64,000 bases of DNA from the NCBI GenBank assembly GCA_937927435.1, contig CALBDW010000018.1:484-64483 (forward strand). The letters are read 5' to 3'. Source of the stretch: an uncultured Bdellovibrionales bacterium (GTDB lineage Bacteria; Bdellovibrionota; Bdellovibrionia; Bdellovibrionales; JAMPXM01). This document shows, piece after piece, positions 32,915-53,559 of this stretch. The notes under the pieces were generated by a model, which saw nothing but the letters and a program-made list of their open reading frames with translations, had not been told where the DNA came from and did no database searches. The translations under genes were made by a program, and so were the position numbers. Numbering within the stretch: the first letter of the stretch is position 1; every line of letters starts with the position of its first letter.

Positions 32915-35197
32915 GTGGACCGCTCACTTGTCGCAGGCGCAATTTTACTGCTCTTTCTCGAGATCGGGCTTCTCTTCGCCGGTCTCGACGACGTTCCAGT
33001 CTGGAAACGGGGCCTCGACGCCGATTCCAGACAGCAACGCCCGATCGCGTTCATGAAACGCACGGAGAGCCATGTGCGCCGCCGTCCCCGCGCCAGCCTC
33101 GTTTGGGAAGAGAGCCGACCGTCCGACACGCTTTACGAAGCCGATTCGGTTCTCACGCTTTCAGGAAGTACGGCGCAAATCGAATTCCACTCGAACACGA
33201 CGCTCAATATCGACGAAAACACCCTTGTAGTTCTTGAGGAAAGCCCGCACCAATCCGATGGCAGCTTGCGCGTGCGTTTCTCACGAGGCACCCTTCGCTC
33301 GTCCAACCCGTCCCAACCGATGCGCATCGAAAGCGGCGAATGGAGCCTCGCCGCCGAACAAGGTTCCGTCGTCAATCTTGTGAGCCTGAACGACGGGCGC
33401 TACGATATTGAGATTCAGGCGGGCCGGGTGAAACTCCAATCCGGAGTCGGGAACGAACTCGAAGTCGGCGGCGGCGAACGTCTCATCATTCGCAGCGACG
33501 GAGTTGAGGACCGTAAAATCGTCGATGCCCAACTCTCTTGGGACGAGAAACTTCCATCCCGACTCTACGCGCGGGAGTTCCCGGTCGAAACCGTGCTCAA
33601 GTGGCAAGGCCAGGCCGAAAAGATTCTTCTCATCAGACCCGACAAGTCGGCGGAAGCGATCCCGATTGAACGAACGAAATCTTCCCTGCAACTCCGGCTC
33701 CAGCCTGGCACTTATCTGGTCTCACTCGTCAATGGGAACCGCGTTTCGGAATCACGCACGCTGCAAGTGCGCGAAGCGCCCCTCTTCAGGTATTTTTCAC
33801 CGCTTCCACGCAACCGGATCCAATCAGGAGTTGAAACGCTCTTTTCGTGGGAGCCGAATCTTTTCGCCTCTCAGTACAGGCTGGAAATCAGCCGCGATCC
33901 GAAATTTTCATCCAGTGTTATTGCGCTCACCGCGGAAAAGCCCGCACTTGCGACGACGCTTGAGAGCGAAGGCGCGTACTACTGGCGCGTTATCGGTCTC
34001 GATGAAGAAAAAACGCCGATTCCCGAACCACGGGTCTATCCGCTTTTCGTGATTCCGGACCCGTTACAATCTCCGGAACTTCAAACACCGACGCTCCGTC
34101 GCCCGGCAACTCCGGAAGAAACTCCGCGCGCCGGAAAGCGAAAATCGAGCTTCCTTTGGCACGTCTTCTTCTCTACAGCATGGGCCAAAAAACGGACCCC
34201 CTCGAGCGATTCCGATTTTGAAGCCGTTTTCACGTGGACGTCGGTTCCCGGGGCGGATCACTACATCATTGAAATCTCCGAATCGCCCGGATTCGAAGAA
34301 CCCATCGTCATTGAACGTGTCAAAACGCCTCAATTTGTTTGGCGAAACTTCAAAAAAGGCCGGTACTTCTGGCGGGTCGCCGCCGGGCAGAGCGGTCCGA
34401 CCGGCGATCGTTTAGGTCTTTTTAGTCCCATTGCCGTCGCACACCTCGAAGATTTTGAAAAGAACGCGGGCCCAGGAGTGACGCTCGCCCGGAAAACGTC
34501 CTTCTCCTCTGCGAAAGAAACGGCGACGACGCCCAAGCCCGATCTAGAGGAAAAATTCCCCGAAGAACTCATGCAAGTGATCCCTGAAACCGAGCCAGTT
34601 CCACAAGAACCGAGTTCGTGGCGGCGAATTCTCACTTGGGCTCCTTCGCACCGCTCTGTGAGCATGGAAGGAGAAAACGACATTCACGGATCATTCAGCG
34701 GTCTCTCGCCTCTCGCCTTTGAAGGCGAGATCCGCTTTATTACAAACAAACGCTTTTGGTCCCTTCGGTTGACCTACGACGAAACTTATTGGGATCCGAG
34801 GAGAGACTCCGCTCCTCCGTCGCAATCATCGGTTCGAGAGCAGCGTTTCAGCGGCGAACTCGTGGCCGGACAAAGTTCGTCTTACTGGAGCTTCGGGTTT
34901 GGAGCCGAGTCGTTCCCGATCTTCAAGCGCAAAGCGCCGGACGAAGGAGCTCTCGAAAGCGTCACCGTTTTCGGACCATCGGCGCGTTTCAACTACGGCG
35001 GTTTTGATTTCTATCTGTCGGCGCGCTTCGGAGAAATCCTGGGCGGACGAGGACGCGCCGGCTGGCACTTCACACTGATCCAATCTGAACGCGCGATCTA
35101 TAGCGCGTTCCCGTTTTACTCGTACGGGCAATTCCAAAACTCCGAGTCGAAAATCGTCGACCAAGGATTCGGCTTGAGCCTTTCGATGGAATGGTAA
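32915..35197 (+). CDS. large envelope protein: N-terminal TM anchor, FecR-like domain, Ig/FN3-like modules, C-terminal beta-rich domain
   Basis: 760 aa with a GTG start. The FecR-like stretch is SVLTLSGSTAQIEFHSNTTLNIDENTLVVLEE...RGTLRS. Recurring module ends are EGAYYWRVIGLD and GRYFWRVAAGQ. The C-terminus ends GFGLSLSMEW. Confidence 0.65.
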   Translation: MDRSLVAGAILLLFLEIGLLFAGLDDVPVWKRGLDADSRQQRPIAFMKRTESHVRRRPRASLVWEESRPSDTLYEADSVLTLSGSTAQIEFHSNTTLNIDENTLVVLEESPHQSDGSLRVRFSRGTLRSSNPSQPMRIESGEWSLAAEQGSVVNLVSLNDGRYDIEIQAGRVKLQSGVGNELEVGGGERLIIRSDGVEDRKIVDAQLSWDEKLPSRLYAREFPVETVLKWQGQAEKILLIRPDKSAEAIPIERTKSSLQLRLQPGTYLVSLVNGNRVSESRTLQVREAPLFRYFSPLPRNRIQSGVETLFSWEPNLFASQYRLEISRDPKFSSSVIALTAEKPALATTLESEGAYYWRVIGLDEEKTPIPEPRVYPLFVIPDPLQSPELQTPTLRRPATPEETPRAGKRKSSFLWHVFFSTAWAKKRTPSSDSDFEAVFTWTSVPGADHYIIEISESPGFEEPIVIERVKTPQFVWRNFKKGRYFWRVAAGQSGPTGDRLGLFSPIAVAHLEDFEKNAGPGVTLARKTSFSSAKETATTPKPDLEEKFPEELMQVIPETEPVPQEPSSWRRILTWAPSHRSVSMEGENDIHGSFSGLSPLAFEGEIRFITNKRFWSLRLTYDETYWDPRRDSAPPSQSSVREQRFSGELVAGQSSSYWSFGFGAESFPIFKRKAPDEGALESVTVFGPSARFNYGGFDFYLSARFGEILGGRGRAGWHFTLIQSERAIYSAFPFYSYGQFQNSESKIVDQGFGLSLSMEW

Positions 35198-35201
35198 GAA
35201 G

Positions 35202-36776
35202 TTAAGCTATTCGCAATCGTACCCAGAGAAGAAGCGGCGCGAGAGAGGACAGAAGCCAGATCCACGCACTCCCTCCCCCGGTCGTGGTTGTTGCCGCTTG
35301 ACAAGAAGCGAATTCGAACTGTCGGTATTCCTTCATCCCATATTCAACTTTGACGGACCGGACGACGACAGGTTGCGTAGCACTCTGATTATTAATCCGA
35401 ACACGAAAACGTAAATAGCGTTTCCCGCCGTTTAAAGAGAGCGAAGCCGCAGGCTGCCACGCCACCGACGCAGCATCGAACGGCGTATCTCCGAAGGCGA
35501 CTTCAAGATCGACTGAACTTCCGCCACTGACGGCTGCGTCGAGCGTAACGGATTTAATATCGGGGGCGTCCGATCCAATATCAATCAACTTGGAGACGAT
35601 TTCAAAAAGCCCGGTCTGATGGCTGACTTTTCCCACGTCGATAATCGGAATCGGTTCAAGATCGAAAGGGAACATCCCCCTCGCATCGGTCGCCCACGTG
35701 CGCCCCGCTCCACCCTTTCCTCCCATTCCTCCGCCCGATGTACCACCGTTACCGCCGAGCGCTTCGATCAGTCCAGTGGAGTTGAGTTCACCACCTGCAA
35801 AGATCTGAACCGAGCCACCGGCTCCGCCACCTCCGCTTCCGCCTTTTCGCGCCGACGCCGACCCGCCGCCTTTTCCTCCGTTAGCGAGAATCTGTCCGGT
35901 GATCGTGATGTCTTTCACAGCATGAATGTAGATGGAACCGCCACCGGCTCCTCCTCCGCCCCCAGTCGCGTGGAGAGTCGCGGGGTCGACCGCGTTATTG
36001 TACATTTGACCACCGCCGCCACCGGCTCCGCCCCCGATCTCGTCAAACACTTTATCGGTCCCTTGTACACCGGCTATTCCAGCGGGGCGAAAACTGAGAT
36101 CCAAGCCGGGATTCGCCGGCGGAGCGTAGGGCCCCATGCCTCCTCCTCCGCCACCACCGCTTCCTTCACTTGTTCCCGCTCCGCCTGCCGCGCCGAGATT
36201 TGTCGACGGCGCCTCACCCGGATCCGGCGCTCCGGTAAGTGATCCTCCGCGACCGCCGTGTGAACCGCCACATCTTCCTAAGCCGCCTGAAGGCGTCGCG
36301 TTCAGGTCGTCCGAGAGGTCTTCACCGTCGTCTCCGGAACAATCGATGATCCCGTGCACCTCCACATTCGAAAGGCAGCGAATGACGAGAGGATTTGAAC
36401 CCGTAGGACGAATCACCCAACCGGATTCAAGATGGAATTCCGTCACATCCAAAACAGGAAAAAGATCGGTATTGATCTTAATGACTCCGTCGTTATTGTA
36501 AACGCCGTCGTGAAAATTCAAATATGTCGATGCATTGAAAGGTCCATGGATTCCGGAGCCAAATTGCAACGGAGTCGAGCTCGGTCCGCTACCGCCATCC
36601 CAGTCCTGCACCTGTAAGGGCGGGTGCGCAAGATTGAGCTTCGGATTGATCACCGCAGTCGACGATTCGACAAAAGCCGGATCCCCTAGGGAAACGGAAA
36701 TCGTTTCCGCGTGCAGAGCAGAGAAGAAAAACTGCGGTAGCACCCCAAGCACAACGGTCTTAGCGAACCCTTTCAT
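35202..36776 (-). CDS. secreted glycine-rich (beta-helix-like) protein with C-terminal GlyGly-CTERM/MYXO-CTERM-like sorting tail
   Basis: 524 aa with signal peptide MKGFAKTVVLGVLPQFFFSALHA. About 200 aa are Gly-rich, in runs such as GGGGAGGGSIYIHAVKDITITGQILANGGKGGG and GGSGGGGAGGSVQIFAGG. The extreme C-terminus TTTTGGGSAWIWLLSSLAPLLLWVRLRIA combines a Gly motif, a TM helix and a basic end. The start overlaps the upstream kinase gene by 17 nt. Confidence 0.75.
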   Translation of the reverse strand: MKGFAKTVVLGVLPQFFFSALHAETISVSLGDPAFVESSTAVINPKLNLAHPPLQVQDWDGGSGPSSTPLQFGSGIHGPFNASTYLNFHDGVYNNDGVIKINTDLFPVLDVTEFHLESGWVIRPTGSNPLVIRCLSNVEVHGIIDCSGDDGEDLSDDLNATPSGGLGRCGGSHGGRGGSLTGAPDPGEAPSTNLGAAGGAGTSEGSGGGGGGGMGPYAPPANPGLDLSFRPAGIAGVQGTDKVFDEIGGGAGGGGGQMYNNAVDPATLHATGGGGGAGGGSIYIHAVKDITITGQILANGGKGGGSASARKGGSGGGGAGGSVQIFAGGELNSTGLIEALGGNGGTSGGGMGGKGGAGRTWATDARGMFPFDLEPIPIIDVGKVSHQTGLFEIVSKLIDIGSDAPDIKSVTLDAAVSGGSSVDLEVAFGDTPFDAASVAWQPAASLSLNGGKRYLRFRVRINNQSATQPVVVRSVKVEYGMKEYRQFEFASCQAATTTTGGGSAWIWLLSSLAPLLLWVRLRIA

Positions 36777-38094
36777 CCGCCTCCCCGGCCTTTCCCTTAT
36801 CGATCGGGAACGTCAATATCGCTTCGAGACCTTTGCTTTGATGATTGGAAAGCACGAACTTTCCGCCGTGCTCGATTTCGACGATGTCTTTGACGATCGC
36901 AAGGCCGAGCCCCGTTCCGTCTTTCTTGGTGGTGAAAAATGGAGCCGTCACTTTATCGATCAGCTTCGGGTCAAGGCCCGGTCCATAATCTCGGACACGG
37001 ATTTCGACGCGATCACCGAGTTCCATGATCGAGAGATCGATCTGCCCGCTGTCCCCCATAGCCTGAATCGCGTTCAAAAGAAGGTTCATGTAAACTTGCA
37101 CCAACGCCGTCTCGTTGCCCTGGATGTCGACACTCTTCTTACGGATCCAGCAGACGTGAATGTGCTTGTCCTTCAATTCATGGCTTAGCAGCATGAGCGC
37201 CTCTTCGATCGGCGCATACGCCGGGAACGTCTTCTTCGTGACGACGTGCCCGTCGGGATTGCGCAAGTACTTGAAGCGCTCGAGAATTTCTGTCGCCCGC
37301 TGTGATGCCTGCAAAATAACCTTCAATGCTTCTTTCAACTGCTCCGCCGTGTTCAAACTGCCGGCGAGCGTCGCCTTGCCGATGATGGTCATCATGATAT
37401 TCCGGAACTCGTGCCCGATCCCCCTCGCGACGAGCGCCATGATCGCAAAGCGTTCGTGCTCTCGCAACTGTCTCTGTAGGTTTTGAACGTGCTCTTCCTT
37501 GACCTCTTTTTCCCTTTGCAAATTCCAGTGGGCGACGCCATTACGGGCTTTCTGGAGAATCTCGCCGCGAGAGAACGGCTTATTGAGATAATCCCAGTGC
37601 GCCGTTTTCGCTTCACCCAATAGCGCTTGGATGGAATCGACGCTCCGATCGCTGTACGCCGTGACAAAGACAGCGTACATGCGTGGATCGATCTCGTGAA
37701 CCTTCTTCACAAGTTCGATACCATCCATGCCGGGACCCAAAACGACGTCGAAAAATCCCATCGTAAACGGCCGCCCCTGCGCGAGCGCATGCTTCACTTC
37801 AGCAAGCGCTTGCTCGGCACTATGGACAACAGTGAGTTCGAACCTGTCCTCTGAAGCGGATTTCGTGTCCGCCGTCGAACCGGCCGATGGCGTAAAACGG
37901 CTTGAACGGGCAAAGGGAATGACATTACTATCCGCCCCCGAAGACAGGATATCACGGTAGGCGTCGGCAATCCCCGGCTCGTCCTCAACGACAAGGATCC
38001 GCGTGTTCTTTTGCGACGGTTCGAAGTTGTGCACGGGGCCCGCGGTTCCAAGAGACACCGCCCGTTCATAAAATCTTTTTGCCGTCGAGCTCAC
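36760..38094 (-). CDS. hybrid response-regulator / histidine kinase (REC-HisKA-HATPase_c)
   Basis: 444 aa with a GTG start. REC domain: ILVVEDEPGIA...FFDVVLGPGMDG...NKP, with a roughly 35-aa insert after helix 1. H-box GIGHEFRNIMMTI. G2 box GTGLGLAIVKDIV. Its start overlaps the upstream kinase stop by 4 nt. Confidence 0.85.
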   Translation of the reverse strand: MSSTAKRFYERAVSLGTAGPVHNFEPSQKNTRILVVEDEPGIADAYRDILSSGADSNVIPFARSSRFTPSAGSTADTKSASEDRFELTVVHSAEQALAEVKHALAQGRPFTMGFFDVVLGPGMDGIELVKKVHEIDPRMYAVFVTAYSDRSVDSIQALLGEAKTAHWDYLNKPFSRGEILQKARNGVAHWNLQREKEVKEEHVQNLQRQLREHERFAIMALVARGIGHEFRNIMMTIIGKATLAGSLNTAEQLKEALKVILQASQRATEILERFKYLRNPDGHVVTKKTFPAYAPIEEALMLLSHELKDKHIHVCWIRKKSVDIQGNETALVQVYMNLLLNAIQAMGDSGQIDLSIMELGDRVEIRVRDYGPGLDPKLIDKVTAPFFTTKKDGTGLGLAIVKDIVEIEHGGKFVLSNHQSKGLEAILTFPIDKGKAGEADERVR

Positions 38095-40202
38095 GACGCC
38101 AACCTCCGTTCTTCGTTCATTTCTTCAGCCGCCAAAGGCAAGTGGAACGAAAACACCGTACCTTCGCCGGGCGCCGATCTCTTCAAAACGATATCTCCGC
38201 CGAAGTCGCGGATAAACCGGCGTGTGATCGTCAACCCCAAACCCGTTCCTTCTTCAACCTGTTTGGTTGTGAACTGGATTTCGAAAAGCTTCGCCGCGTT
38301 TTCCGGCGAAATACCGTTCCCGTTATCCTCGATTTCGACGTGAACCCGCCCTTCCGCGACCCCGGTTGAAATGCGGATCCGACCTTTTTCAGTCGACCCC
38401 GTCCGCCGCTTCTCTTCAATCGCCTGAATGGAGTTGCGGATCAAGTTCGTAAAGCATTGGATCAACTCATCCTTGTCCACCAGAACTCGATCGTCTTCGG
38501 GAGCAAGCTCCGTTGCGATTTCGATTTGCTGGTGATCCGTGAGATCCGCCATAATCTTCACGGCCTCCTGCGCGATATCACCGAGCGAATGGACCTTCAC
38601 TCCGTCGCGAGGACGGGTCAAAGCCCGCATTTTTTGCACGATCTTGTGAATTCGTTGGCTTTCTTTCAGGACGAAATCGACGTCGCTGACGAGAGTTTTA
38701 AACTCCTCGCCCAAGTTTTCTTCCACTTTCTTGAAATTTTCCATGTCCTCTTCCCAAAGCGACATGGATGGATTCACGGACGAAGGAGACTTCCAACCCG
38801 CCACAAGTTTCTCGAAACCGCCCGAAGCGAGATCAGCGTTCCAGCTTTGCACGATCCCTTTAATCAATGCGACTTCCTGAACCGCGCCCTGTTGCATGCG
38901 ATTTCGGATTTTTTCCAAGCGAGCCACCATGCTCGTTAAGGGATTCAAAACCTCGTGAGCCGCCCGCCCCGCGACTTCGCCCACCGTCGCCAAACGGGTC
39001 GTTTGTAAGAGAGCTTCCTGAGCTTGTTTTACGGCTAAGTTCTGCTCTTCGAGTTTCTTCGTCCTGTCTCTCACCTTTTTCTCGAGGTCGCGGTTGATCT
39101 CTTCGAGCTCCCGTCTGGACGCATGAAGATCCGCGATCATAGAATTGAACGCGTTGGCCAAAACGGCGATTTCGTCGCGGGTTTTGACCGAGGCCCGCGT
39201 GCTCAAATCCCCCTTCGAGACCCTCGCCATCGTTTCCGCGAGAGACTGGATCGGCCGCGTGAGCGAACGCGAGAAGAAAATCGCGGCCAAAAAGGCGAGA
39301 GTGAGCGCGATCGACGCGAAAATCAGCGAGCGGACCACAAGGCTCTCGACCGCCGCGAAGGCGTAACGTCCGTCCACCTGAGAAAGTACATAAACGCGTC
39401 CGCCGTAACCGGCTGAAAAAGCGCCGAGGTACTCATGGTCGTCATCCTTAAAACGCAAAACCCCCGTACGAACGGCTTGCGATTTCGCAAATTTGAATAG
39501 CGGATGACTCGCGTAGGGCCGGTTGGCCCACAATGCATCCGGACGCGAGTGAACGACAAGATCCCCTTTTTCGTTCACAACGATCATTTCATTCAGACGC
39601 GAGCCGGAGAAAGTCTGCAGGATCTTGTCCGCCCGTACAAAAACGATCATGGCGAAAGGAGCGACCTGCGAAGATCCTTTTGCGCCTTCGATTTCCGGCA
39701 CCACTGACCTTCCGAAACCGATCAGGGGCGGCCCCTCCTTCAAACTAGCATTCCAGACCGCGACGCCCTCCGTTTGAATCTCCGCAAACGGTATCGGCCG
39801 CAGTCGCGGCAGGATTTCCGTGAAGTAGGTTTCGGCGACTCCGTAGGTCTCGGCGTACTCCTTATCGAAATAGTAGACGTGATCGAAATTTCGAAAACTG
39901 TAGCTTGCCACGGCGAACGCGATATTGGAATCCGCGTTCAGGATATCGTGGACCAGGGCCCTTGAGTTCCGGCCCTGGGAAAGAATCGCCACCAGGCGCA
40001 TTTTGTCGGCGATCCCGCTGAAGAGAATGTTAAACTCTGAACTCAAGCTCGAAACGGAACTTCGGTTCAAGTCAAATACCAGCTCGATCTTGTCACGGCG
40101 AAAGATATGCGAAGCCAAAACGAGATACGAGACCACGCTGAACACGAGCAGCACGGTCGTGACGACTAGAAACTTGTACCGAATCGGGAACCGGTTCTTC
40201 AT
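38091..40202 (-). CDS. sensor histidine kinase (2 TM, extracytoplasmic sensor region, HAMP, HisKA, HATPase_c)
   Basis: Start moved to ATG 40202 (MKNRFPIRYKFLVVTTVLLVF). HAMP domain RSLTRPIQSLAETMARVSKGDLS. H-box AAHEVLNPLTSM. G2 box GTGLGLTITRRFI. Confidence 0.85.
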   Translation of the reverse strand: MKNRFPIRYKFLVVTTVLLVFSVVSYLVLASHIFRRDKIELVFDLNRSSVSSLSSEFNILFSGIADKMRLVAILSQGRNSRALVHDILNADSNIAFAVASYSFRNFDHVYYFDKEYAETYGVAETYFTEILPRLRPIPFAEIQTEGVAVWNASLKEGPPLIGFGRSVVPEIEGAKGSSQVAPFAMIVFVRADKILQTFSGSRLNEMIVVNEKGDLVVHSRPDALWANRPYASHPLFKFAKSQAVRTGVLRFKDDDHEYLGAFSAGYGGRVYVLSQVDGRYAFAAVESLVVRSLIFASIALTLAFLAAIFFSRSLTRPIQSLAETMARVSKGDLSTRASVKTRDEIAVLANAFNSMIADLHASRRELEEINRDLEKKVRDRTKKLEEQNLAVKQAQEALLQTTRLATVGEVAGRAAHEVLNPLTSMVARLEKIRNRMQQGAVQEVALIKGIVQSWNADLASGGFEKLVAGWKSPSSVNPSMSLWEEDMENFKKVEENLGEEFKTLVSDVDFVLKESQRIHKIVQKMRALTRPRDGVKVHSLGDIAQEAVKIMADLTDHQQIEIATELAPEDDRVLVDKDELIQCFTNLIRNSIQAIEEKRRTGSTEKGRIRISTGVAEGRVHVEIEDNGNGISPENAAKLFEIQFTTKQVEEGTGLGLTITRRFIRDFGGDIVLKRSAPGEGTVFSFHLPLAAEEMNEERRLAS

Positions 40203-40355
40203 AACGCTTTCCGGTGGCGGCTTCGCAGGCGCCGCCCTCGGTTCCTTATCGGCGGTTTTTTCGATTTCAAAACATGAAACAACACGGAACGCGGGCACAG
40301 TGCCCCAAAACAGGACATCCGTGCCCGGCGTGCTTCATCGCTGAACAGGAGAAAT

Positions 40356-41060
40356 TCAGAAGCGGGCCACGATCGAGAAATAGGGCTGCAGTTCCGCCTG
40401 CAGGGGCTTTGTGGAGAACGTTTGATCCGTGTACGAGTTACTCGGGTTGGTTCGATCCTCGAGGCTGCCTTTCGCGTACTCGACACTTCTGTAAATCAAG
40501 CTGGGACCGATCTGCAGCCAAGGCTTGAGCGTGAAGTTGTAGCCGAAGTTGATGAGGAAACCGCTCCCCTCTTTATTCGTGTAGGTCTGGTCCGAAACGA
40601 GGATGCCGGACGAGTTCTTGTACTTCATCGAGTACTTCCACTCGCTGCTCATGACGTAGGTGGCGATGAGCTTCCAGCCGCCGAAGAGAACGCCGAGCGA
40701 CGGACCGTACTCGGTGATCGTCGTCGAGCCTTCTTTAGGCTCGTGTCCGTTCCGGTTCGTGTTGGCGGTATACATGTTGTAAGAAAAACCGATGAGCCAC
40801 CGTCCATGGATCGCATACCCGAGAATCGCGCGGGCGTCGAGCCCCGCGACCGATTCTCTCCCTGGGTCCGCTTCGCCCGGAAGCGCGCCTCCGGCTGGGC
40901 TCCAATACTGGTTATGCGTCTGCCAAACCGGAATGAAGGAACCTTCGAGATAAAAGTTGCCGACATCCCGGCTTCGCGCAGACGCTTCCGATTGAGACAG
41001 TGCCACGCCCGCAAAAACAATCGCGTTTAGTAAAAGAAGAAATTTGCCGAATTTCTGCAT
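40356..41060 (-). CDS. outer-membrane beta-barrel protein
   Basis: Start moved to ATG 41060, giving signal peptide MQKFGKFLLLLNAIVFAGVALSQSEASA. It shows alternating strand pattern and ends YFSIVARF. It lies upstream of, and on the same strand as, the two kinase genes. Confidence 0.65.
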   Translation of the reverse strand: MQKFGKFLLLLNAIVFAGVALSQSEASARSRDVGNFYLEGSFIPVWQTHNQYWSPAGGALPGEADPGRESVAGLDARAILGYAIHGRWLIGFSYNMYTANTNRNGHEPKEGSTTITEYGPSLGVLFGGWKLIATYVMSSEWKYSMKYKNSSGILVSDQTYTNKEGSGFLINFGYNFTLKPWLQIGPSLIYRSVEYAKGSLEDRTNPSNSYTDQTFSTKPLQAELQPYFSIVARF

Positions 41061-41225
41061 GTGAGTGTCTCCACCATGACTCAATTTACTGAGCAATCAT
41101 CGTTTCAAAAAGAGAAAGAGCGCCTTAACAAGCCCTTAGTGTGAATTTTTTGACGAATATTCCGACAATAGTCTGGTAGGGCGCTTTTCGCGAAAAAAGG
41201 CGATGGTTTAAACACGGAGGACTTT

Positions 41226-44108
41226 GTGCCTGCTGAAGGATTGAACGGAACCAGGAAACTCCTCAAAGGGTTGGCGGCGTTCGCCCTTGTTCTGTCAATC
41301 ACGGGCTGCCTGGGAAATGGGGCTAAGCCTCCGAGCGAAAACGACGGCGCAGAGGGATCCTTCTGCGGAGAGGAAGTCGAGCAGACGTATGTCCCGATCC
41401 GTATCGACGGAGGCAAGCATCTCCGCTTCGATCCCAACGCGTTCAAGATTCTTTCAGATCCGAAATTCAATGTTCTTTCCGTCAATCTTTATGTCGAACT
41501 CGAGACGAAAAAGCCGAAATACGAAGTGACCGTCGGACTCAACGGCCAGATGGCGACCCGGAGCGACGGCTCGACCGACTTCGATCCGGATGACGGCAAA
41601 TTCAAAGGACACAAGCGTCTCCGTCTCGATAAGTATCGTTTGAACGGTGGCGAACCGCTCGCCAACACGATTTTAAGGCTGCAACTGCTAAGCGCGATCC
41701 TGAAAATCACGCTGCAAGGACCGCACATCTACGTGAAATCGGCGGCTCTCGTCATCAGAGGCTATTATCCCGGCCCGTGCCCGACGCCGACTCCCCAACC
41801 GACGCCGGCTCCCGTTGCACCTTCAGTTTCCATCACGAAAGTCACACCGGCGGCCGCCATGACCGCGAGCACGGACATCCACGTCGAGTTCACTTCAGAC
41901 CAACAAGGCGTGACGTTCCTCTGTTCGCTCGACGGCGCGAACGAAAGCGCATGCACGTCGCCTTATATCCGCTCCGGGCTTGCAAACGGCGAACACGTCT
42001 TTACGGTTCGCGCGCGTAACGCCTACGGCCTGACCGGTCCCGCCGCTGAGCACCGTTGGGTCATCGACACGGTTCCTCCTGTCGTCTCGGTCACGCAACC
42101 GGCGAGCCCGACGAACAAACGCTCCGCCTCCATCTCGTTCTCGTCCACAAAAGCCGGTGTATTCAAGTGTTCTCTTGATGGTGCGGCCCCCGCTCTCTGC
42201 ACTTCTCCCCATACAGTCACCGGATTGAGTGAAGGGCTGCACACGTTCACGGTTTACCAAACCGACAACATCGGGAATGTCGGCGTACCGGTGTCCGTGC
42301 AATGGTGGGTCGATCTCACAGCCCCGACCGTGCAAATCGTCGCGACCGAGCCAAGCGCGAGCCCCAGCTCTTCGAATTCGCGCGAAATCAGCTTCGCCGC
42401 AAGTGAAAGCGCGAAATTCGAATGCTCGCTCGACAGCGCAGCTTTCACAGCCTGCGAATCGCCCGTTCGACTCTCCGGCCTCGGTGAAGGCTCGCACCTG
42501 TTCGAAGTGCGCGCGACCGATGCCGCCGGCAACACGGGGCCGGTCGCAAGCGTGTCTTGGGTGACCGACCTTACGGCGCCCGTGATCAAACTCGGGTCCA
42601 TCCAACCGGCTCCGGGTCATACGAATGCGTCCGAATTCAAAGTGGAATTCTCCAGCAACGAACCCGCGAAGTTCTTCTGCCGCATCGACGGCGATGACGA
42701 AACCGAGTGCGAAAGCCCGCTGACCGGCAGCTTCGCGGAAGACGGGCGCCATACAGTTGAAATCACGGCTGAAGACTACGCGGGACTCCGCTCAACTCCG
42801 ATTCTGGTCTCGTGGATCGTCGACCGCGAAGCGCCCGAAATTCACTTCGCGGAACTTTTGCCTTCGTCAGCGGCTTACATCGCCTCGAACTTGCTTGAAG
42901 CCTACGTCCAGAGTCCGGAAGAGGTCGAGCTGCACGCAGCTCTCAACGGCGTGTTGCTCGGCGTTGTGCAGTCGCCGATCCGTTTGGAGAACCTTGCCGA
43001 AGGCACTTATGTTCTCGAAGTGGTCGGCTACGATATCTACGGAAACACAACCAACGAGATCGCGCACGCGTTCACCGTTGATTTGACAGCTCCTGCGCTC
43101 CACGTGACGTCGCAATATGGTAACGGTCAGGTCGTGAGCCGCACGTCGAACTCTTTCGAGTTCAGTGCGAATGAGCCGGTCGAATTCGAATGTGAACTCA
43201 ACGAATCCGGCTTCATCCCCTGCGCGAGCCCCTACGATGTTTCAGGTCTCATCGACGGCGAACATGTTTTCAAAGTCCGGGCTCGCGACCGGGCCGGAAA
43301 CCTGAGCATCGTGACCGAAACGTCTTGGACAGTTGACACCATCGCACCGAGCACAGACCTCACGGCCGTCCAAGTCGACGACGACACATATGATTTCATG
43401 TTCTCATCAAACGAGCCGGGCGCCCGCTTCCTTTGTTCGGTCGACGGGTCGGAGCCCGCTCCATGCGTGTCGCCTCATAGGCTCACCTTCGATGTGGGCA
43501 GCCACACGTTTACGGTTTACGCTGTCGACCAAGCCGGCAACATTGATCCCTCTGGTGCCAGCTATTCGCTCCATGTCCTGCCGGCGATCGCGACCTCTCT
43601 CAGGCACTCGGGCGTCGTTTTCACCAACTCGACCAGCATGACGTTCTCCTTCTCCTCGAACCACGACGACGCGAGCTTCCTGTGCTCGCTCAACGGCGCC
43701 GCGCCTGAGCCTTGCGTATCACCGATGACGGTTTCGGGCCTTGCCAACGGCCAACACACGTTCCTCGTTCAGGCCGTCGACCGGTTCGGCCGTGTTGATC
43801 CGGTCGGTGCCAGCCATACATGGACGGTCGATACGATCGCTCCCGTCATCATCGCATCGGACTACACAACAACCGCGACGACTCTCACGGTGACCTGGGC
43901 TCTCAACGAAGCTGCAACCGGCCGGCTCAGATGGGGAACCGGCTCGGCCTTGAATCGCGAGACGGAAGAGCGACCGGCCGCCCCCTCCCATCAGATCCAA
44001 TTGACGGGCTTAAGCCCGAACACGGTCTACTCGATCCAGATCACCGGACACGACGGAGCGGGCAACGAGTACAATGGTCCTGTCCTGCAAATTCGTACAC
44101 GCTTCTAA
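41226..44108 (+). CDS. large surface lipoprotein: N-domain, Pro-rich linker, 8 tandem Ig-like two-Cys modules, C-terminal FN3-like domain
   Basis: 960 aa with a GTG start and lipobox LSITGC. The repeated module is FxC(S/E)LDGxxxxxCxSPxxxxGLxxGxHxFxVxAxDxxGNxxxxxxxxWxVDxxAP. The tail TVTWALNEAATGRLRWGTG...LTGLSPNTVYSIQITGHDGAGNE is FN3-like. Confidence 0.8.
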   Translation: MPAEGLNGTRKLLKGLAAFALVLSITGCLGNGAKPPSENDGAEGSFCGEEVEQTYVPIRIDGGKHLRFDPNAFKILSDPKFNVLSVNLYVELETKKPKYEVTVGLNGQMATRSDGSTDFDPDDGKFKGHKRLRLDKYRLNGGEPLANTILRLQLLSAILKITLQGPHIYVKSAALVIRGYYPGPCPTPTPQPTPAPVAPSVSITKVTPAAAMTASTDIHVEFTSDQQGVTFLCSLDGANESACTSPYIRSGLANGEHVFTVRARNAYGLTGPAAEHRWVIDTVPPVVSVTQPASPTNKRSASISFSSTKAGVFKCSLDGAAPALCTSPHTVTGLSEGLHTFTVYQTDNIGNVGVPVSVQWWVDLTAPTVQIVATEPSASPSSSNSREISFAASESAKFECSLDSAAFTACESPVRLSGLGEGSHLFEVRATDAAGNTGPVASVSWVTDLTAPVIKLGSIQPAPGHTNASEFKVEFSSNEPAKFFCRIDGDDETECESPLTGSFAEDGRHTVEITAEDYAGLRSTPILVSWIVDREAPEIHFAELLPSSAAYIASNLLEAYVQSPEEVELHAALNGVLLGVVQSPIRLENLAEGTYVLEVVGYDIYGNTTNEIAHAFTVDLTAPALHVTSQYGNGQVVSRTSNSFEFSANEPVEFECELNESGFIPCASPYDVSGLIDGEHVFKVRARDRAGNLSIVTETSWTVDTIAPSTDLTAVQVDDDTYDFMFSSNEPGARFLCSVDGSEPAPCVSPHRLTFDVGSHTFTVYAVDQAGNIDPSGASYSLHVLPAIATSLRHSGVVFTNSTSMTFSFSSNHDDASFLCSLNGAAPEPCVSPMTVSGLANGQHTFLVQAVDRFGRVDPVGASHTWTVDTIAPVIIASDYTTTATTLTVTWALNEAATGRLRWGTGSALNRETEERPAAPSHQIQLTGLSPNTVYSIQITGHDGAGNEYNGPVLQIRTRF
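41820..43844 (+). repeat. 8 tandem coding repeats of about 255 nt (about 85 aa) inside the lipoprotein gene
   Basis: Module starts: VTFLCSLDGANESAC, VFKCSLDGAAPALC, KFECSLDSAAFTAC, KFFCRIDGDDETEC, ELHAALNGVLLGVV (the fifth has lost both Cys), EFECELNESGFIPC, RFLCSVDGSEPAPC, SFLCSLNGAAPEPC. The copies are diverged at the DNA level. Confidence 0.8.
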
Positions 44109-44136: not shown

Positions 44137-44769
44137 CTAAGCGATCCAGTTACGACTGCTCCTGACCAGTCTCGGACGAACGGCGATGAAATAATAAAAG
44201 ATTCCGACAAACGCCCCTCCGAGATGTGCCCCATGCCCGATGGGAAGACCTCCACCTTTCGCTTGCGCACTTAATCCCCATAAATCCAGGCCGACGAACG
44301 CGAGAGCGCCCATAAGCGCAGGCACCGGTATGATTCCGAAGAGCAAAATTTTTTCTCTGGGGAAAATAAGGGAAAACAAAAGAACAACGCCACAAACCGC
44401 GCCCGAAGCTCCGAGTGCCGCAAGCCCCGGCTCCTCAAGCAAATACGCGGAAACAACAGCATGAACCAAAGATCCAAATATGCCGGCCCCAAGATAAAAA
44501 GAGAAAAACCGCAGATGACCGAGAAACGGTTCCAGCACGCGGCCAAAACTGCTGAGAACCATCATGTTGAGCAAAAGATGGATCAGAAGGGAGTGCGAAA
44601 AAACGGAAGAAAGGCAAACCCACCAACGCCCTTCTAGCAAGGCGTCCCAACTGACCAAGAAGTTTTCTTCCATGAAAAGGTAGCTGGGAATGCCGAAAGT
44701 CCACATCAAGAAGACCGCGACATTGATAAGAATGATGGCGGTGACGAAATAACTTCGCCGCGATCCCAA
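44137..44769 (-). CDS. rhomboid-family intramembrane serine protease (possible rhombosortase)
   Basis: 210 aa with 6 TM helices. HxxxN in SLLIHLLLNMM, catalytic GxSG in LGASGAVCG, and catalytic His in GHGAHLGGAFVG. It starts 23 nt after the hybrid kinase stop. Confidence 0.85.
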   Translation of the reverse strand: MGSRRSYFVTAIILINVAVFLMWTFGIPSYLFMEENFLVSWDALLEGRWWVCLSSVFSHSLLIHLLLNMMVLSSFGRVLEPFLGHLRFFSFYLGAGIFGSLVHAVVSAYLLEEPGLAALGASGAVCGVVLLFSLIFPREKILLFGIIPVPALMGALAFVGLDLWGLSAQAKGGGLPIGHGAHLGGAFVGIFYYFIAVRPRLVRSSRNWIA

Positions 44770-44792: not shown

Positions 44793-47636
44793 TTACATAT
44801 TCAGCGCTTCTTTGATCCCTCTTATCAACGCCTTACGCGTCACCGGCTTCGTGAGGTGAGCCTGACATCCAGCCGCCAGCGAGCGCTGCACTTCCTCGGC
44901 CAGCGCGTGCGCCGACAGCGCCACGATCGGTCGCTTGAAATTTTGCTGCCGAAGTCTGCGCGTAGCTTCAAGTCCATCCATACGCGGCATCTGAATATCC
45001 ATCAGAATCAAATCGAAGTCGCTTTCAAGAGCCTTTTCCAGGGCCTCCGCACCATCGCGGGCGACCTGGATTTCTGCACCGGTTTGTTTCAAGTAGGCCC
45101 GTATTAAAGCTTCGTTGTCAGGAGAGTCTTCGGCAAGAAGAATCCGCGTGCCGGTCAAGTCAGTTTCCGAAATATCGGACTCCACCGAGCGCACCTTGCC
45201 ATCCCGGCCTTTTTTCTCTTTAATCGTGCGGCTTTCGACCGGCAGGATGAGCCGGAAAACCGAACCCTGCCCCGGCGAGCTGTGAAGCAAGCTCAGGCTT
45301 CCACCCAAAGCTTCGGCGAATTTTTGCGACAACGCGAGCCCCAGTCCCGTTCCTCCAAAACGCCGCGTGACCGAGGAATCCCCCTGCGAAAACGGCGCAA
45401 AAAGATTTTTGCGGAACTCATCGGGAATCCCTATGCCTGTGTCCTCGACATCGATCACCAACGATGAACGACTGTATTTAGATTCCGGCAGGAACGAGAC
45501 CCGGGTTTCAATGAAGCCTTTCGTTGTGAATTTCGCGGCGTTACCAAGGAGATTGGTTAGAATCTGGCGGAGCCGCACAGGGTCGCTCATGATCGTTTGC
45601 GGAACGTTATCACTGATCACGAGACGGGTTTTGATATTCTTGCCCTGGATCATAACCGAAAGCGAATCATGCACGTCCCGGATCAAATCAATGGCTGAGA
45701 ACGGCACTTTTTCGAACTCGAGACGATCAGCTTCGACTTTGGAAAGATCCAATATGTCGTCAATCAGATGAAGAAGTTGGTCGCCGTTAGCACGAATCCG
45801 TTTGCGATACTCCTCGCGTTCCTCTTCCGTAAGCCCTTTGTCGCCCAGGAGATCGGTGAACCCCAGGATGGCGTTCATAGGTGTGCGGATTTCATGGCTC
45901 ATGTTTGCGAGAAATTGGGATCTCGCCTGGCTGGCGATTTCAGCGCTCGCCCGGGCGGCCTTTTCAGCTTCAAACAAACGAGCTCTTTCGATCGCAAGCG
46001 CCGCCTGCTCGGCGAGAATCACGAAATAGCTCTTGCGCTCGGGAGAAAAAACCTCGGTGCTTTCAAAAGCGAGACTGATCGCGCCGAGCACCTTGTTATG
46101 GCTGAGAAGGGGAAGCACCGCGAGCGACTGAAGCTTATCTGTCCCAGGAATCTGATTAAGCTCCGGATAGCGCTGCTTAACTTCCTCGCGACTGTAAATA
46201 TAGATCGGAGACTTCGAGCTGCAGGCGTCCAGCGCAATACCCCTAAAGTGATTGGCATCGGTGTCCAGCCGCACCTTGTCCTGAAGCTTGTCGTAAACAA
46301 CTTGAATGTCCCGTTTATCGTCGTCCGTCATGAGCACAACGCATCCAGCCGAAGCGTCGACCGCCTGCATGCCCTCTTCAATGATCACACGCGCGATATC
46401 CTCGACACTGTCGCTTTGCATGAGTTCGTTGGCGATCGCCTGTAACCGGATCACTTTTCTCTGTATGCGAGCCTGACGCTCTTCGGCCACCTTGCGGTCG
46501 TGAATGTCGGTCGTCGTTCCGAACCATTCTATCAGGTTCCCATTTTCATCCCTCACGGGCACACCGCGGGATAAAAACCAGCGGTAAGCTCCATCTTTGC
46601 GGCGCAGACGGACTTCGAACTCAAAGCCCTCGCCCTGTTTCAGAACCCGCTCCCAGAGCTTCCTCGTTCTTTCGAGATCGTCCTGATGAACGAGTGAAAG
46701 CCAGCCACCGGTTTCCGGATTCGTCACTTCCAAACCGGAGTACTCGGCATATCTTCGGTTGGCATAGGTAAGCGTTCCGTCCGGCGCGGCTGTCCAGACG
46801 AACTCCGGCAAGTACTCGAGCAGCAGCCGCGTCTTGCCTTCACTCTCGCGGATTTTCCGCTCCATCAATTTTTGCTTTGTTGCGTCCGCGACGACAAAGA
46901 CAGCACGGATAACCTCATTCCGCTCATCGCGTATCAGACGGCAGCGAGAATGGATCCACTTCGGCCCCTTCTTTTCGCGATCATAAACACGATAATCTAT
47001 ATCGAAGCTCTGCCGGGGGTCCCTGCGGATCGCCTTGACGATCCTTTTTAACCGATCCGCATCTTCGACATACACCCTCGTAATAAACTCCTTAAACGAC
47101 AACGTCTCTTGTTTTTCGGTGAAGCTGAAAATGCGCCGGGCGTTTTCATCCAAGGTGATGGTATACTCCTTGACACTGAACTCGCCGATACCCATGTCCG
47201 CGCTTTCGAGTGAGAGCCGTAGGCGGACGTCCCGCTCCTCGAGTCTGCGCTCAATTCCCTTCAAATCGGTGACATCCGTTTGTAGAACGACGATACCGAC
47301 CACCTCGCCACCCTTTCGATCCGGAACATATGTGCCGCGGTAGTACCGGCGTTCTCCGAAACGGTTCACGAGACTGATCTCGACATGAGTGATAATCTCA
47401 CCTTTAAGAGCACGGTCTAAACAGGGCCGGATACGGCTGTAGGTTTCATCACCCAAGATTTCGCTGATGTGATGCCCTACTATGTTCTCCCGATTTCTCC
47501 CGAAAACGCGGAAATATGCCTCATTGATGAAGCGGTAGCGGTGGTCGGGCGTGACATAGGCGACCAAAGCCGGCAAGGCGTTGATAATGCCCTCAGAGTT
47601 CCAATTGTTTGCGATATCTTTTTTTCTCTTTTGCAC
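44793..47636 (-). CDS. hybrid sensor histidine kinase (PAS x3, GAF, HisKA, HATPase_c, REC)
   Basis: 947 aa. H-box [17 protein letters not shown]2 box [13 protein letters not shown]-terminal REC domain [13 protein letters not shown]...[14 protein letters not shown]...LTKP. There are no TM segments, so it is a cytoplasmic sensor. Confidence 0.9.
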
Positions 47637-51090: not shown

Positions 51091-51636
51091 TTACGGCTTC
51101 CAAATGCCGCCGTCAAAAAATGGTTGATAATAACCCGTCATAACATTAAAGGGCATCCTTATGCCACCAAAAATGATCATGAAATCTCCTGCCCCAATGG
51201 CGATATGTCCAGCTCGCGGGCCTGGTGCACCCTCCGTCGTGAGGGCACTCCACGAGTCCGTTACCGGATCGTAAATGGCGCCCGATTTAAACATCAACAA
51301 TTCGGCATTAACGTCATCATATGCCCCTCCGCCCCAAATCACGACCTTTCCGTTCACGCTCGCCGCGGAGTGACCAGTCCTAGCTTCGGGGGCGTTCGTC
51401 GTCGTCATCGGTGCCCACGCCTTTGTCTGCAGGTTGAAGCGAGCCCCGGTATTAACCGGGTTACCCGTGCCCGAATCAATTCCTCCCCAAATGACCAAAT
51501 GAGTTCCCGTCCACGTCGCCGAATAACTGCGCCGACCGCTCAAGGACGGATCTCCTGAAATCAACTCCCATGCATCCGCGGAGGGATCGTAAACCCCGCC
51601 GTTATTTAAAAAACCTCCGTTTTCATCATGCCCCCC
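51091..51636 (-). CDS. Kelch-repeat protein, C-terminal fragment (frame broken from the upstream fragment inside a G9 tract)
   Basis: The frame reads ...GGGHDENGGFLNNGGVYDPSADAWELI...LVIWGGID...VVIWGGGA...MIIFGGIR..., which is 3-4 further Kelch blades. The first 73 aa of the 251-aa track ORF are out-of-frame overlap with the upstream fragment. Confidence 0.7.
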   Translation of the reverse strand, partial: GGHDENGGFLNNGGVYDPSADAWELISGDPSLSGRRSYSATWTGTHLVIWGGIDSGTGNPVNTGARFNLQTKAWAPMTTTNAPEARTGHSAASVNGKVVIWGGGAYDDVNAELLMFKSGAIYDPVTDSWSALTTEGAPGPRAGHIAIGAGDFMIIFGGIRMPFNVMTGYYQPFFDGGIWKP

Positions 51637-53530
51637 CCCACACGATGACTTTCGATCCGGTCCAAAAAGCTTGCGCTCCATACCGAGCGGAAGGCGCCCC
51701 TGAGTTTGAAATCGACGTCCATGAATTCGTGGCCAAGTTATAAAGAGCTCCGCTCGACAAAACGCCATCGCCGTCTTTCCCGCCCCACACAAACATTTTG
51801 TCACCCATCCAAACGGCGGCGTGCTGACTTCTCGCTGAGGGCGCATTCGTCACACTCATACTCGCCCATGAATCACTGGCGACGTCATAAACGCCACCGG
51901 TGTTAAAATACTGAGCCTCTTCATCGGAGCCTAGCGTGTATTTCGCCCCCCCCCACACGAGCACTTTTGACCCAGTGGAAGTCAAGGAGTGCTGCCCCCG
52001 TGCCTCAGGAGCGCCAACCGTGGACATATGGCTCCACAAGCCAGTGTCGGGATTAAAACGATCACCCCAATTGACCGCCCCAAACAAACCAAATCCACCC
52101 CATGTAATTAAGTGTGACCCAGCCCACACTCCTTTCAGTTCCGGCTCCGAGCTCGTAATCAATAAATCATCGTGAAACCTGAGATCTGGTCGTGGATCGG
52201 GCAGTCCCCAAGCGAACGAAGCGAAACTCTGCCACGTATTGGTGGAAAGGTCGTAAATGGCGGCATATCTCGACATGTACGTCCACACCAAAAGCTTCGA
52301 ACCGTTAAATGCCGTCACGGGAGCGAGCCCGGCTAATAACGACGACATGACGTCCTCAGTATCAATGGATTCATAAAGGTATTCATAAAGACGCCGAATA
52401 TCATTCGGCAAGGGAGCCATGTCACTCCAGGTATCCGTTGCCGGATCATAGAGCTTCCCTTCAAGGAAGGCCCAGACGAGCATTTTCGAACCAGTCCAAT
52501 ACGCAACATGGCGACTTGTCGGCTCGGGAGCTCCAACTTCCGAAATCGGACTCCATGTATCTGTGCTAGGATTGTATCGAGCTCCCGTGGCAATGGCGTT
52601 GAAGTCAGACCCTGTTCCTCCCCACACGATCATTTCTTGGCCCGTCCAAATCGCTGTATGGCCATATCGCCCTTGTGGAGCTCCAACTGTCGACATCGCC
52701 TGCCATGTATTGGTCGCGGGATTATAACGCCCCCCTGTGTTCGGAAAACTCCATCCCGCCCCCACACCTCCCCAGACGATCATCTCTTGCCCCGTCCAGA
52801 CAGCCTGATGCCCGGTGCGATTTGATGGCGCGTTTGTCGTGCTGATCACATGCCATTGATTGGTATTGGGGTCATAGCGCCCCCCACTACTATAGGGCGC
52901 ACCACTGTCTATTCCTTTACCCCCCCAATAAATAAGCTCAGTTCCAGTCGACACCACGGAGTACCCAACAACTCTCACAGGTTCGCCGGGCGCATTGATC
53001 GCCGTCCAAGTTCCGTTCGTAAGATCGTAAACAAAACCATGATCGTTACTCGTTATCCCCCTAAAAACCAGCTTCGATCCGATCTTCGCCGACTGAGATT
53101 CGAACGTGTGGCCCTGCATAACGATGGATAATGTCTCAACCAACCATCGGAAACCATCGTAGCGCTCCCAATAGCCATAATTCGGATTAGAAACAGAATT
53201 CGACACGCTGGTCATCGTATTGAATACCTTTATTCGGGTGCCACTTGAAGTAGAACCGCCTTCGGGACCATCGACGCCGCTTATGACGAAAACGATTTCC
53301 TCATCCGTCCAGTAAGCCTGTTGGAGTCCTCCACCAAGACCGATGTACAGGCCAAGCATGTCAGTCAGGTAATCGATCGCTTCGCCTGGTATCGAGGTCC
53401 ATGAACCCAGACCAGCCGTGGCCGATGACTTCTTTTTCCAGAATGCTCCTAAGTTGAAACCCGTTGCGAGCGCAGAAAGAGGGATAGCGGTGACAATAAC
53501 CAGTGTGATAGCAAGGCAGGTTTGAATCAT
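51626..53530 (-). CDS. secreted Kelch-repeat beta-propeller protein, N-terminal fragment
   Basis: Start moved to ATG 53530 (signal peptide MIQTCLAITLVIVTAIPLSALA). At least 9 blades carry the xxVWGG...YxPxTxxW pattern (LIYWGGKG, MIVWGGVG, MIVWGGTG, LITWGGFG, VLVWGGAK, MFVWGGKD, VIVWGGA-stop). It starts 29 nt after the fibre A stop. Confidence 0.75.
   Translation of the reverse strand: MIQTCLAITLVIVTAIPLSALATGFNLGAFWKKKSSATAGLGSWTSIPGEAIDYLTDMLGLYIGLGGGLQQAYWTDEEIVFVISGVDGPEGGSTSSGTRIKVFNTMTSVSNSVSNPNYGYWERYDGFRWLVETLSIVMQGHTFESQSAKIGSKLVFRGITSNDHGFVYDLTNGTWTAINAPGEPVRVVGYSVVSTGTELIYWGGKGIDSGAPYSSGGRYDPNTNQWHVISTTNAPSNRTGHQAVWTGQEMIVWGGVGAGWSFPNTGGRYNPATNTWQAMSTVGAPQGRYGHTAIWTGQEMIVWGGTGSDFNAIATGARYNPSTDTWSPISEVGAPEPTSRHVAYWTGSKMLVWAFLEGKLYDPATDTWSDMAPLPNDIRRLYEYLYESIDTEDVMSSLLAGLAPVTAFNGSKLLVWTYMSRYAAIYDLSTNTWQSFASFAWGLPDPRPDLRFHDDLLITSSEPELKGVWAGSHLITWGGFGLFGAVNWGDRFNPDTGLWSHMSTVGAPEARGQHSLTSTGSKVLVWGGAKYTLGSDEEAQYFNTGGVYDVASDSWASMSVTNAPSARSQHAAVWMGDKMFVWGGKDGDGVLSSGALYNLATNSWTSISNSGAPSARYGAQAFWTGSKVIVWGGA
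51631..51639 (-). repeat. homopolymer G9 (C9 on plus strand) at the Kelch frame break
   Basis: Coding strand GTG TGG GGG GGG GCA TGA. A length of 8 or 11 would fuse the two Kelch ORFs. Confidence 0.9.
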
Positions 53531-53559
53531 TCTTTTCAACAACTCAAACCCCACAACGT

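Follow-up and report, generated by a model that had tools for sequence, protein, structure and literature searches.

We analysed a 64,000-nucleotide stretch of contig CALBDW010000018.1 from an uncultured Bdellovibrionales bacterium (positions 484 to 64,483; hereafter the window), centering on a minus-strand gene at 35202-36776 that encodes a glycine (Gly)-rich secreted protein of 524 amino acids (aa). A previous interpretation made from the letters alone (the sequence-only reading) had placed this gene at the end of a run of four on the same strand, and all four are present in the open reading frame (ORF) listing: a small secreted protein of 246 aa (40356-41096; probable start ATG 41060) that was called an outer membrane protein (OMP), a HAMP sensor kinase of 735 aa as called (38091-40298), a REC-HisKA-HATPase_c hybrid kinase of 444 aa (36760-38094), and the Gly-rich protein itself. 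What had been overlooked is the most tightly linked partner of all, a plus-strand gene at 32915-35197 that converges on the Gly-rich gene and encodes a 760-aa FecR-like envelope protein. The two kinases, the Gly-rich protein, and the FecR-like protein recur together across Bdellovibrionota-type genomes, and the Gly-rich protein ends in a conserved tail with an invariant cysteine (Cys), which we tentatively interpret as a processed membrane anchor.

A conserved four-gene module

The gene junctions reported for the three downstream genes were borne out. The two kinase genes have a GTGA at 38091-38094 in common (a 4-nt overlap), and the stop codon of the hybrid kinase (36760-62) lies beyond the ATG of the Gly-rich gene at 36776 (a 17-nt overlap), which is preceded by a GGAGG Shine-Dalgarno sequence. 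To judge from the sequence, the hybrid-kinase gene is translationally coupled to both of its neighbors. At the other end of the Gly-rich gene, the FecR-like stop codon is 4 nt away from the Gly-rich stop codon (window 35195-35204), and elsewhere the 3' ends of these convergent genes overlap by 24-76 nt (L001, 11669-11710; L002, 11558-11581; L003, 11434-11509). A gap near zero or an outright overlap leaves no space for a terminator and implies overlapping antisense transcripts. In another relative, L012, an HNH endonuclease gene (8486-9439) is inserted between the two.

The 735-aa kinase matches the Pfam models HAMP (59 bits) and HATPase_c (86 bits) and gives a weak HisKA match; it comprises two membrane helices, an extracytoplasmic domain of ~260 aa, HAMP, a HisKA-like H-box, and HATPase_c. 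The 444-aa kinase is cytoplasmic and comprises, according to Pfam, a REC domain with an insertion, HisKA, and HATPase_c. The H-boxes of the two kinases (HEVLNPL and HEFRN) and the receiver Asp can be read from the sequence. Syntenic orthologs of the hybrid kinase, with 36-48% identity, occur in all related loci, and the set conserved in relatives at 30-64% identity consists of a HAMP kinase of ~700 aa, a REC-kinase of ~430-470 aa, the Gly-rich protein, and the FecR-like protein. The module usually has, in addition, one or two REC proteins that stand alone and are 121-147 aa long.

The related loci fall into two clades that differ in gene order. In six loci of clade 1 (L001, L002, L005, L006, L012, and L013), the kinases are followed by the Gly-rich gene and a convergent FecR-like gene, and in the seventh (L003) the REC-kinase has shifted to the far side. 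In clade 2 (L007, L008, L010, and L011), the FecR-like gene lies directly upstream of the Gly-rich gene and the kinases are divergent. The four-gene linkage holds in both clades despite this rearrangement, down to 30% identity, and at each locus examined the FecR-like and Gly-rich genes are neighbors. The sequence-only reading had pointed to the coupling of the Gly-rich protein to kinases without a DNA-binding regulator, and this proved to be general, with the module lacking such a regulator both here and at each of the 13 related loci examined; nor does the module include a sigma factor gene at any locus examined. A full-text literature search returned no description of the module. One of the complete clade-2 modules, with 32-40% identity to the window genes, comes from a record labelled candidate division WWE3 (L011); its assignment to this candidate phyla radiation (CPR) lineage looks like a binning error.

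The Gly-rich protein is the least familiar member of the set. No Pfam, NCBIfam, or PHROG model matched it (37 family members were scanned against Pfam), and an exact-sequence look-up of the window protein returned no record. The family was first found as 43 clusters, and an exhaustive profile search raised the number to 315 representative clusters (E≤1e-30), most of them of 500-600 aa and matched over their full length. The contig profile search was seeded with a working subset of seven sequences, the full alignment of the N-terminal domain being too diverse, and a contig scan seeded on the poly-Gly run found nothing. On these sequence comparisons, the family is large, uncharacterized, and without a curated model.

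The signal peptide claimed for this protein is supported by its sequence, by the family alignment, and by a structural model. It occupies residues 1-23 (coding region 36708-36776, minus strand), reads MKGFAKTVVLGVLPQFFFSALHA / ETIS with the ending AHA/ET (…SALHA/ET), has a nearly invariant Ala23 across the family alignment, and is a helix at residues 2-18 in the AlphaFold2 (AF2) model. An N-terminal beta domain (24-145) follows, then a Gly-rich core (146-360), a beta-sandwich (~380-480), a disordered linker (485-503), a membrane helix (504-520), and a basic end. The core is as Gly-rich as had been described, with 35% Gly and runs of up to 7 Gly. The model of the whole protein has a predicted local distance difference test score (pLDDT) of 88.1 and a predicted template modeling score (pTM) of 0.81, and the core is modeled at pLDDT >90 almost without helix or strand as assigned by DSSP; the exceptions in the Gly-rich region are three strand-strand-strand units at 130-145, 281-297, and 322-338. 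From sequence and model, this is a Sec-exported extracytoplasmic protein with two domains, a solenoid-like Gly-rich core and a jelly-roll-type beta-sandwich.

Fold comparisons gave a lead rather than an answer for the core. A Foldseek search of the model against PDB found nothing at E≤0.001, and its weak matches, to carbohydrate-binding and jelly-roll modules, cover only the C-terminal domain. A sequence-profile search of PDB gave marginal matches to the N-terminal domain of Obg/MTG2 (E 0.02-0.3), and the proteins matched moderately in a fold search of a viral library were uncharacterized Gly-rich ones from phages and giant viruses (E 1e-10 to 1e-5). The Obg N-terminal domain is of the polyglycine-II type, to which the Gly-rich domain of ALK/LTK and the gp38 tip of phage S16 also belong. 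Long Gly runs that are confidently modeled without DSSP strand or helix, together with the marginal Obg/MTG2 match, are shared with such folds, whereas the lack of a significant PDB fold match and of a Pfam match sets the protein apart, and we regard polyglycine-II similarity as a model-based lead.

The core is not confined to the ~520-aa family. In other lineages it recurs (profile positions ~104-480) as two to eight tandem copies in giant secreted proteins, among them P0167 (7,437 aa, eight copies), P0220, P0270, P0274, P0277, P0288, and P0296, none of which has the Cys tail. Three of the four giants scanned carry Pfam domains such as Big_5, Big_7, TSP3, Laminin_G_3, Calx-beta, or TIG. A tail-less protein of 1,476 aa with the core is encoded in L009 (6158-10588). 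The presence of the core in giant secreted proteins argues that it is an extracellular module, with the tail as an extra peculiar to the ~520-aa family.

The FecR-like partner is assigned to PF04773 with 27.4 bits against a cutoff of 24, and many of its homologs carry the same precomputed assignment; at least 120 homologous clusters were found, of uniform length. Its AF2 model (pLDDT 87) has an N-terminal helix (2-23), the FecR beta domain, three Ig/Fn3-like sandwiches, a Pro-rich disordered linker (518-561), and ~13 long antiparallel strands (568-759), and the chain ends in Trp. For a signal peptide, the helix at the N terminus would show unusual conservation: position 16, in mid-helix, is Glu or Gln in 49 of 50 homologs (Glu16 in the window), and D2, R3, L13, and L20 are conserved too. 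An aromatic residue (Trp, Phe, or Tyr) closes the chain in 44 of the 50, which resembles an outer-membrane beta-signal. We infer from the model that this protein may unite an inner-membrane tether and an outer-membrane-type barrel in one polypeptide, which would be unusual; a fold search did not confirm the barrel because Fn3 arrays dominate the FecR-like matches.

The arrangement invites comparison with the FecA-FecR-FecI system, in which an envelope signal is likewise relayed by a protein that has a FecR domain and one membrane helix at its N terminus, and which involves an outer-membrane barrel element. It differs in that the FecR-like protein has only ~4 residues before its helix and no cytoplasmic anti-sigma domain, that no nearby gene encodes an extracytoplasmic function (ECF) sigma factor or a TonB-dependent transducer, that the FecR-like protein carries the barrel-like region within its own chain, and that the cytoplasmic side is represented by two histidine kinases.

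The C-terminal tail

The tail quoted in the sequence-only reading, SCQAATTTTGGGSAWIWLLSSLAPLLLWVRLRIA, is correct. The C-terminal tail (aa 492-524; coding region 35205-35303, minus strand) comprises Cys492, the spacer QAATTTTGGGS, a Pro-containing hydrophobic helix, AWIWLLSSLAPLLLWV, and the basic end RLRIA, and in the AF2 model the C-terminal helix spans residues 504-523. The tripartite layout that had been claimed, with a signature residue, a hydrophobic helix, and a basic end, is conserved in the family. The signature residue, however, is the Cys and not the small Gly motif beside the helix that had been singled out: the residues immediately before the helix vary across the family, while the Cys equivalent to C492 is invariant in 41/41 aligned tails and is followed by Gly in 34 of them.

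The same picture holds for the larger set. Of 151 full-length family representatives, 146 carry the whole tail, and the remaining five are truncated or have a longer spacer. Among the 146, the Cys is part of Cys-Gly in 109 and of Cys-Gln in 8, the spacer between Cys and helix has a median of 13.5 residues (13.5-15 over the tail sets compared; range, 6-28), and Arg or Lys directly follows the helix in 137. The helix is short (13-18 residues) and contains Pro in 116 of the 146 tails, a residue that is nearly invariant in the family alignment, and the cytoplasmic stub after it, of 3-33 residues, is not conserved. In the AF2 model, Cys492 lies between the last beta-strand and the helix, in the linker 485-503, which is the sole low-confidence internal stretch (pLDDT <50). 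Its position in this linker, outside the folded domains, makes a structural disulfide partner unlikely, and the model suggests that Cys492 is a free, membrane-proximal residue. A further giant protein, P0294, with a different architecture and the same core, ends in GGGGCGVTTATYDLDVLGAFVPLFVIVGFIVMRRRRA (GCG-helix-RRRR); its locus was uninformative.

Two established sorting systems had been proposed as precedents for the tail, GlyGly-CTERM with its rhombosortase and MYXO-CTERM. The first found no support. TIGR03501, the GlyGly-CTERM model, had no match at E≤10 to the window tail, to 36 clade-1 tails, or to three clade-2 tails. There is indeed a Rhomboid-domain ORF (Pfam) at 44137-44769, where a rhomboid protease had been noted; its best NCBIfam match is the rhombosortase model TIGR03902, but with 33.2 bits against a cutoff of 84, and it scores 89.4 bits on the generic PF01694. 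A tBLASTn search of the 11 related loci whose flanks were usable found no rhomboid within 10 kb of the module. The tail has the general tripartite layout of GlyGly-CTERM and, in this one sequence, a GGGS before the helix, with a rhomboid in the same window; it differs in that no model matches, the Gly-Gly at the helix is not conserved in the family, and the rhomboid is both below cutoff and not syntenic. On the model scores, the motif conservation, and the synteny, we rejected GlyGly-CTERM/rhombosortase; by the criteria that the sequence-only reading had itself set, the rhomboid/GlyGly half of it is refuted. A GlyGly-CTERM label for a tripartite tail near a rhomboid gene is not warranted from one sequence.

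The comparison with MYXO-CTERM fared better in part. The layout agrees, in that both have an invariant Cys, a hydrophobic helix, and Arg/Lys after it, and MYXO-CTERM was the only sorting-signal model that the window tail touched; formal membership failed, and we rejected it on score. The tail of TraA, used as a positive control, reached 20.6 bits on TIGR03901, barely above the cutoff of 20. On a second model, TIGR03382, the window tail scored 8.5 bits. TraA is the validated substrate of the myxosortase MrtX, and its tail is given as FCCGTTADATPAGSTT-FLLLLAAGLTFL-RPRRPAR and also as …AFCCGTTADATPAGSTT-FLLLLAAGLTFL-RPRRPAR, with a spacer of 12 residues (PMC11980579). The Gly-rich protein shares with MrtX substrates a signal peptide at the N terminus and a tail in which an invariant Cys, mostly as Cys-Gly, precedes a hydrophobic helix and a cluster of basic residues, and with TraA in particular a comparable Thr/Ala/Gly spacer. 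It differs in its lineage, which is Bdellovibrionota and not Myxococcota; in its distribution, since the MYXO-CTERM tag occurs on dozens of unrelated proteins and this tail on one family in our sample; and in the conserved helix Pro and the longer, variable spacer of the family. A second Cys-type signal, JDVT-CTERM with its protease MrtJ, similarly serves essentially one substrate family, and there the gene for the CPBP protease is adjacent to the substrate gene (Haft 2023 preprint); in contrast, the 13 loci examined here have no adjacent CPBP gene, and the tail has no NCBIfam match to the JDVT-CTERM model. By analogy, the tail is best read as resembling MYXO-CTERM without being a member, and as a putative new variant of Cys-type anchors.

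Neighboring genes and other window features

The gene upstream of the kinases proved to be a looser associate than had been supposed. The OMP label could not be verified, as the 246-aa product has no family match in Pfam or NCBIfam; it starts with a signal peptide, its last residue is aromatic, and it is possibly a beta-barrel. Because homologs of the HAMP kinase align only from residue 33 of the window protein (the L012 ortholog has 709 aa), the true start of this kinase is probably the ATG at 40202, which leaves a gap of 153 nt between the two genes. The RNA of the intergenic gap (163 nt as folded) reaches -65.6 kcal/mol (z = -3.5; 0/200 shuffles equally stable), and a GC-rich hairpin followed by a U-rich stretch at 40291-40330 (minus strand), downstream of the OMP-like gene, coincides with a terminator-like site call. 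The presence of the hairpin and U-rich stretch in the gap makes the claimed co-transcription with the kinases doubtful. Only L012, the closest relative, has a counterpart of the OMP-like gene (62% identity), and the upstream gene of L001 is unrelated to it; the OMP-like gene is probably its own transcription unit and a clade-specific neighbor.

Other surface proteins are more frequent companions. An Ig-repeat lipoprotein of 960 aa (41226-44108, plus strand) has the lipobox LSITGC, Big_13/OmpL47-type repeats, and a C-terminal Fn3 domain (Pfam, NCBIfam); its homologs adjoin the module in L008, L010, L011, and L012, and it may be a further module component. Either such a homolog or a secreted Fn3-containing protein is often found beside the module. 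For a ~380-aa neighbor in L001, an initial impression of a PA14 domain was dropped, since Pfam gave only a weak Fn3 match. At L003, the clade-1 locus that is most distant, genes for a secretin, PilM, and several N_methyl (pseudopilin-type) proteins flank the module (1173-5205 and 15754-17929). MYXO-CTERM proteins reach the surface by means of a type II secretion system, and the flanks in L003 may be relevant in this regard.

Within the window, the flanks of the module are unrelated to it (ferritin, rhodanese, acyl-CoA synthetase, a PAS-GAF hybrid kinase, hemerythrin, Sir2, and RtcB). The hybrid kinase, of PAS-PAS-GAF-HisKA-HATPase-REC architecture (44793-47636), adjoins the rhomboid gene and lies outside the conserved module. 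Elsewhere, a sodium-translocating pyrophosphatase is encoded at 4482-7109 (1,300 bits), and a major facilitator superfamily (MFS) transporter at 14585-15847 has as its best match the myxochelin exporter MxcK, with 300 bits against a cutoff of 525. Kelch-repeat propeller matches fall on two overlapping minus-strand ORFs in different frames (51091-51846 and 51626-53578), which may represent a single gene broken up by a frameshift or a sequencing error. Runs of sizeable minus-strand ORFs at 53560-56018 and 59884-63695 have no Pfam match except for one DUF5907 repeat.

A processed or a permanent anchor

The explanation that we favor, at a confidence that stops somewhat short of an even chance, is that the module is an envelope-signaling device in which the Gly-rich and FecR-like proteins feed a two-kinase relay and the Cys-type tail is lipidated and cleaved. 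The tail helix would first hold the Gly-rich protein in the inner membrane; the Cys would become lipidated, an intramembrane protease encoded elsewhere in the genome would remove the helix, and the protein would be left lipid-anchored in the envelope, the nearby rhomboid playing no part. The FecR-like protein would span the envelope, with an inner-membrane helix containing the buried Glu and an outer-membrane-type barrel at its C terminus, and together the two proteins would form the extracytoplasmic input. A phosphorelay might then start at the HAMP kinase, pass to the hybrid kinase through its REC domain, and, in most genomes, continue to CheY-like REC proteins, so that the output would be post-translational and not transcriptional.

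Several observations weigh against this explanation. The window tail scored 12.8 bits on TIGR03901 (E = 0.12; cutoff, 20), that model matched only 3 of 36 homolog tails at E≤10 (best E 0.008), and the three clade-2 tails gave no match to it. MYXO-CTERM has been described as Myxococcota-specific (Guo, Haft & Wall, mBio 2025, PMC11980579). In Cys-type signals, moreover, the motif is said to abut the helix without a spacer (Haft 2023 preprint), and the family has a spacer of 6-28 residues; this criterion is a soft one, given the 12-residue spacer of the validated TraA tail. No gene for a CPBP-type or other multi-pass protease turned up in a search by membrane-helix counts and CPBP motifs, which covered the window and, at 13 related loci, the sequence up to 10 kb from the Gly-rich gene. 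The tail was found on no unrelated protein in the 64-kb window or in ~254 kb of related loci from 11 genome fragments, where the two other matches to the tail pattern fall on shadow ORFs that lie within longer ones. A sorting tag would normally have many client proteins. Finally, the module in this window has no small REC protein, and none lies between the kinase and Gly-rich genes in L012 and L013.

Much of this evidence would be accounted for if the helix were never removed. The Gly-rich protein would then be a permanently anchored, periplasm-facing co-receptor of the HAMP kinase in the inner membrane, and the Cys would serve another purpose, for instance a membrane-proximal intermolecular disulfide, as in a homodimer, or metal or redox sensing. 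We consider this main rival unlikely but serious; the data at hand are compatible with a processed and a permanent anchor alike. With a permanent anchor, no processing enzyme need be encoded nearby, the confinement of the tail to one family in our sample and the sub-cutoff MYXO-CTERM score are as expected, the positive residues right after the helix fit a simple stop-transfer sequence, and tight translational coupling to membrane kinases would suit a stoichiometric complex in the inner membrane. Such an anchor would nonetheless leave unexplained why a Cys, usually in Cys-Gly, is absolutely conserved in a disordered linker, and why a helix of only 13-18 residues almost universally contains a helix-breaking Pro. 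Candidates for disulfide pairing are also wanting, as the FecR-like partner has no invariant Cys and the extracytoplasmic domain of the window HAMP kinase has no Cys.

A more ambitious picture, which we put forward as a rather improbable elaboration, is of a hitherto undescribed trans-envelope device of Bdellovibrio-type bacteria in which the FecR-like protein bridges both membranes, through its conserved helix with the buried Glu and its C-terminal barrel, the Gly-rich protein, possibly of polyglycine-II type, carries a Cys sorting signal of its own that is not MYXO-CTERM and is served by a separate enzyme, and the two-kinase relay acts non-transcriptionally; surface or prey contact could be what such a device senses.

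It is also conceivable, if improbable, that the Gly-rich protein gives no signal input and is cargo, a surface coat or adhesin co-regulated with the kinases or controlled by them. The core recurs in giant adhesin-like proteins with Ig-like, TSP3, LamG, and Calx-beta domains, and Ig/Fn3 surface proteins adjoin the module, both of which would suit cargo. The module, however, has no transcriptional regulator through which the Gly-rich gene could be controlled, and the linkage to the kinase and FecR-like genes survives rearrangement over deep divergence. The 17-nt overlap with the kinase gene also counts against cargo, since it implies that the Gly-rich protein is made with the kinases and not in response to them.

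Quite improbable, in our view, is regulated shedding, in which a general intramembrane protease (a generic rhomboid or site-2 protease) would cut the Pro-containing helix, on the pattern of the proteolysis cascades of FecR-type anti-sigma factors, and release of the ectodomain would be the signal, the Cys not being lipidated. Helix-destabilizing residues are a general requirement of rhomboid substrates, and a short helix with a conserved, helix-destabilizing Pro would meet it; the FecR-domain partner in the module and the generic rhomboid encoded in the window point the same way. Yet the cytoplasmic stub is so short, and is not conserved, that its release would carry no information into the cell, synteny between the rhomboid and the module is lacking, and the invariant Cys would be left without a role. 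As for the sequence-only model itself, cleavage of a GlyGly-CTERM tail by a rhombosortase, the rhomboid 7 kb away, it is very improbable indeed, with ~40 family tails that lack a TIGR03501 match and a conserved Cys in place of a helix-adjacent Gly-Gly.

To our knowledge, Cys-type C-terminal sorting has so far been validated only for MYXO-CTERM and MrtX in Myxococcus; if the tail of the Gly-rich protein is processed, such sorting would extend to the Bdellovibrionota, and with a single dedicated substrate. A family of 315 clusters without a Pfam or NCBIfam model is always wired, moreover, to a pair of kinases and a FecR-like partner, the latter possibly spanning both membranes. The module is a candidate envelope-sensing pathway in a lineage that is known for predation and in which little signaling has been characterized.

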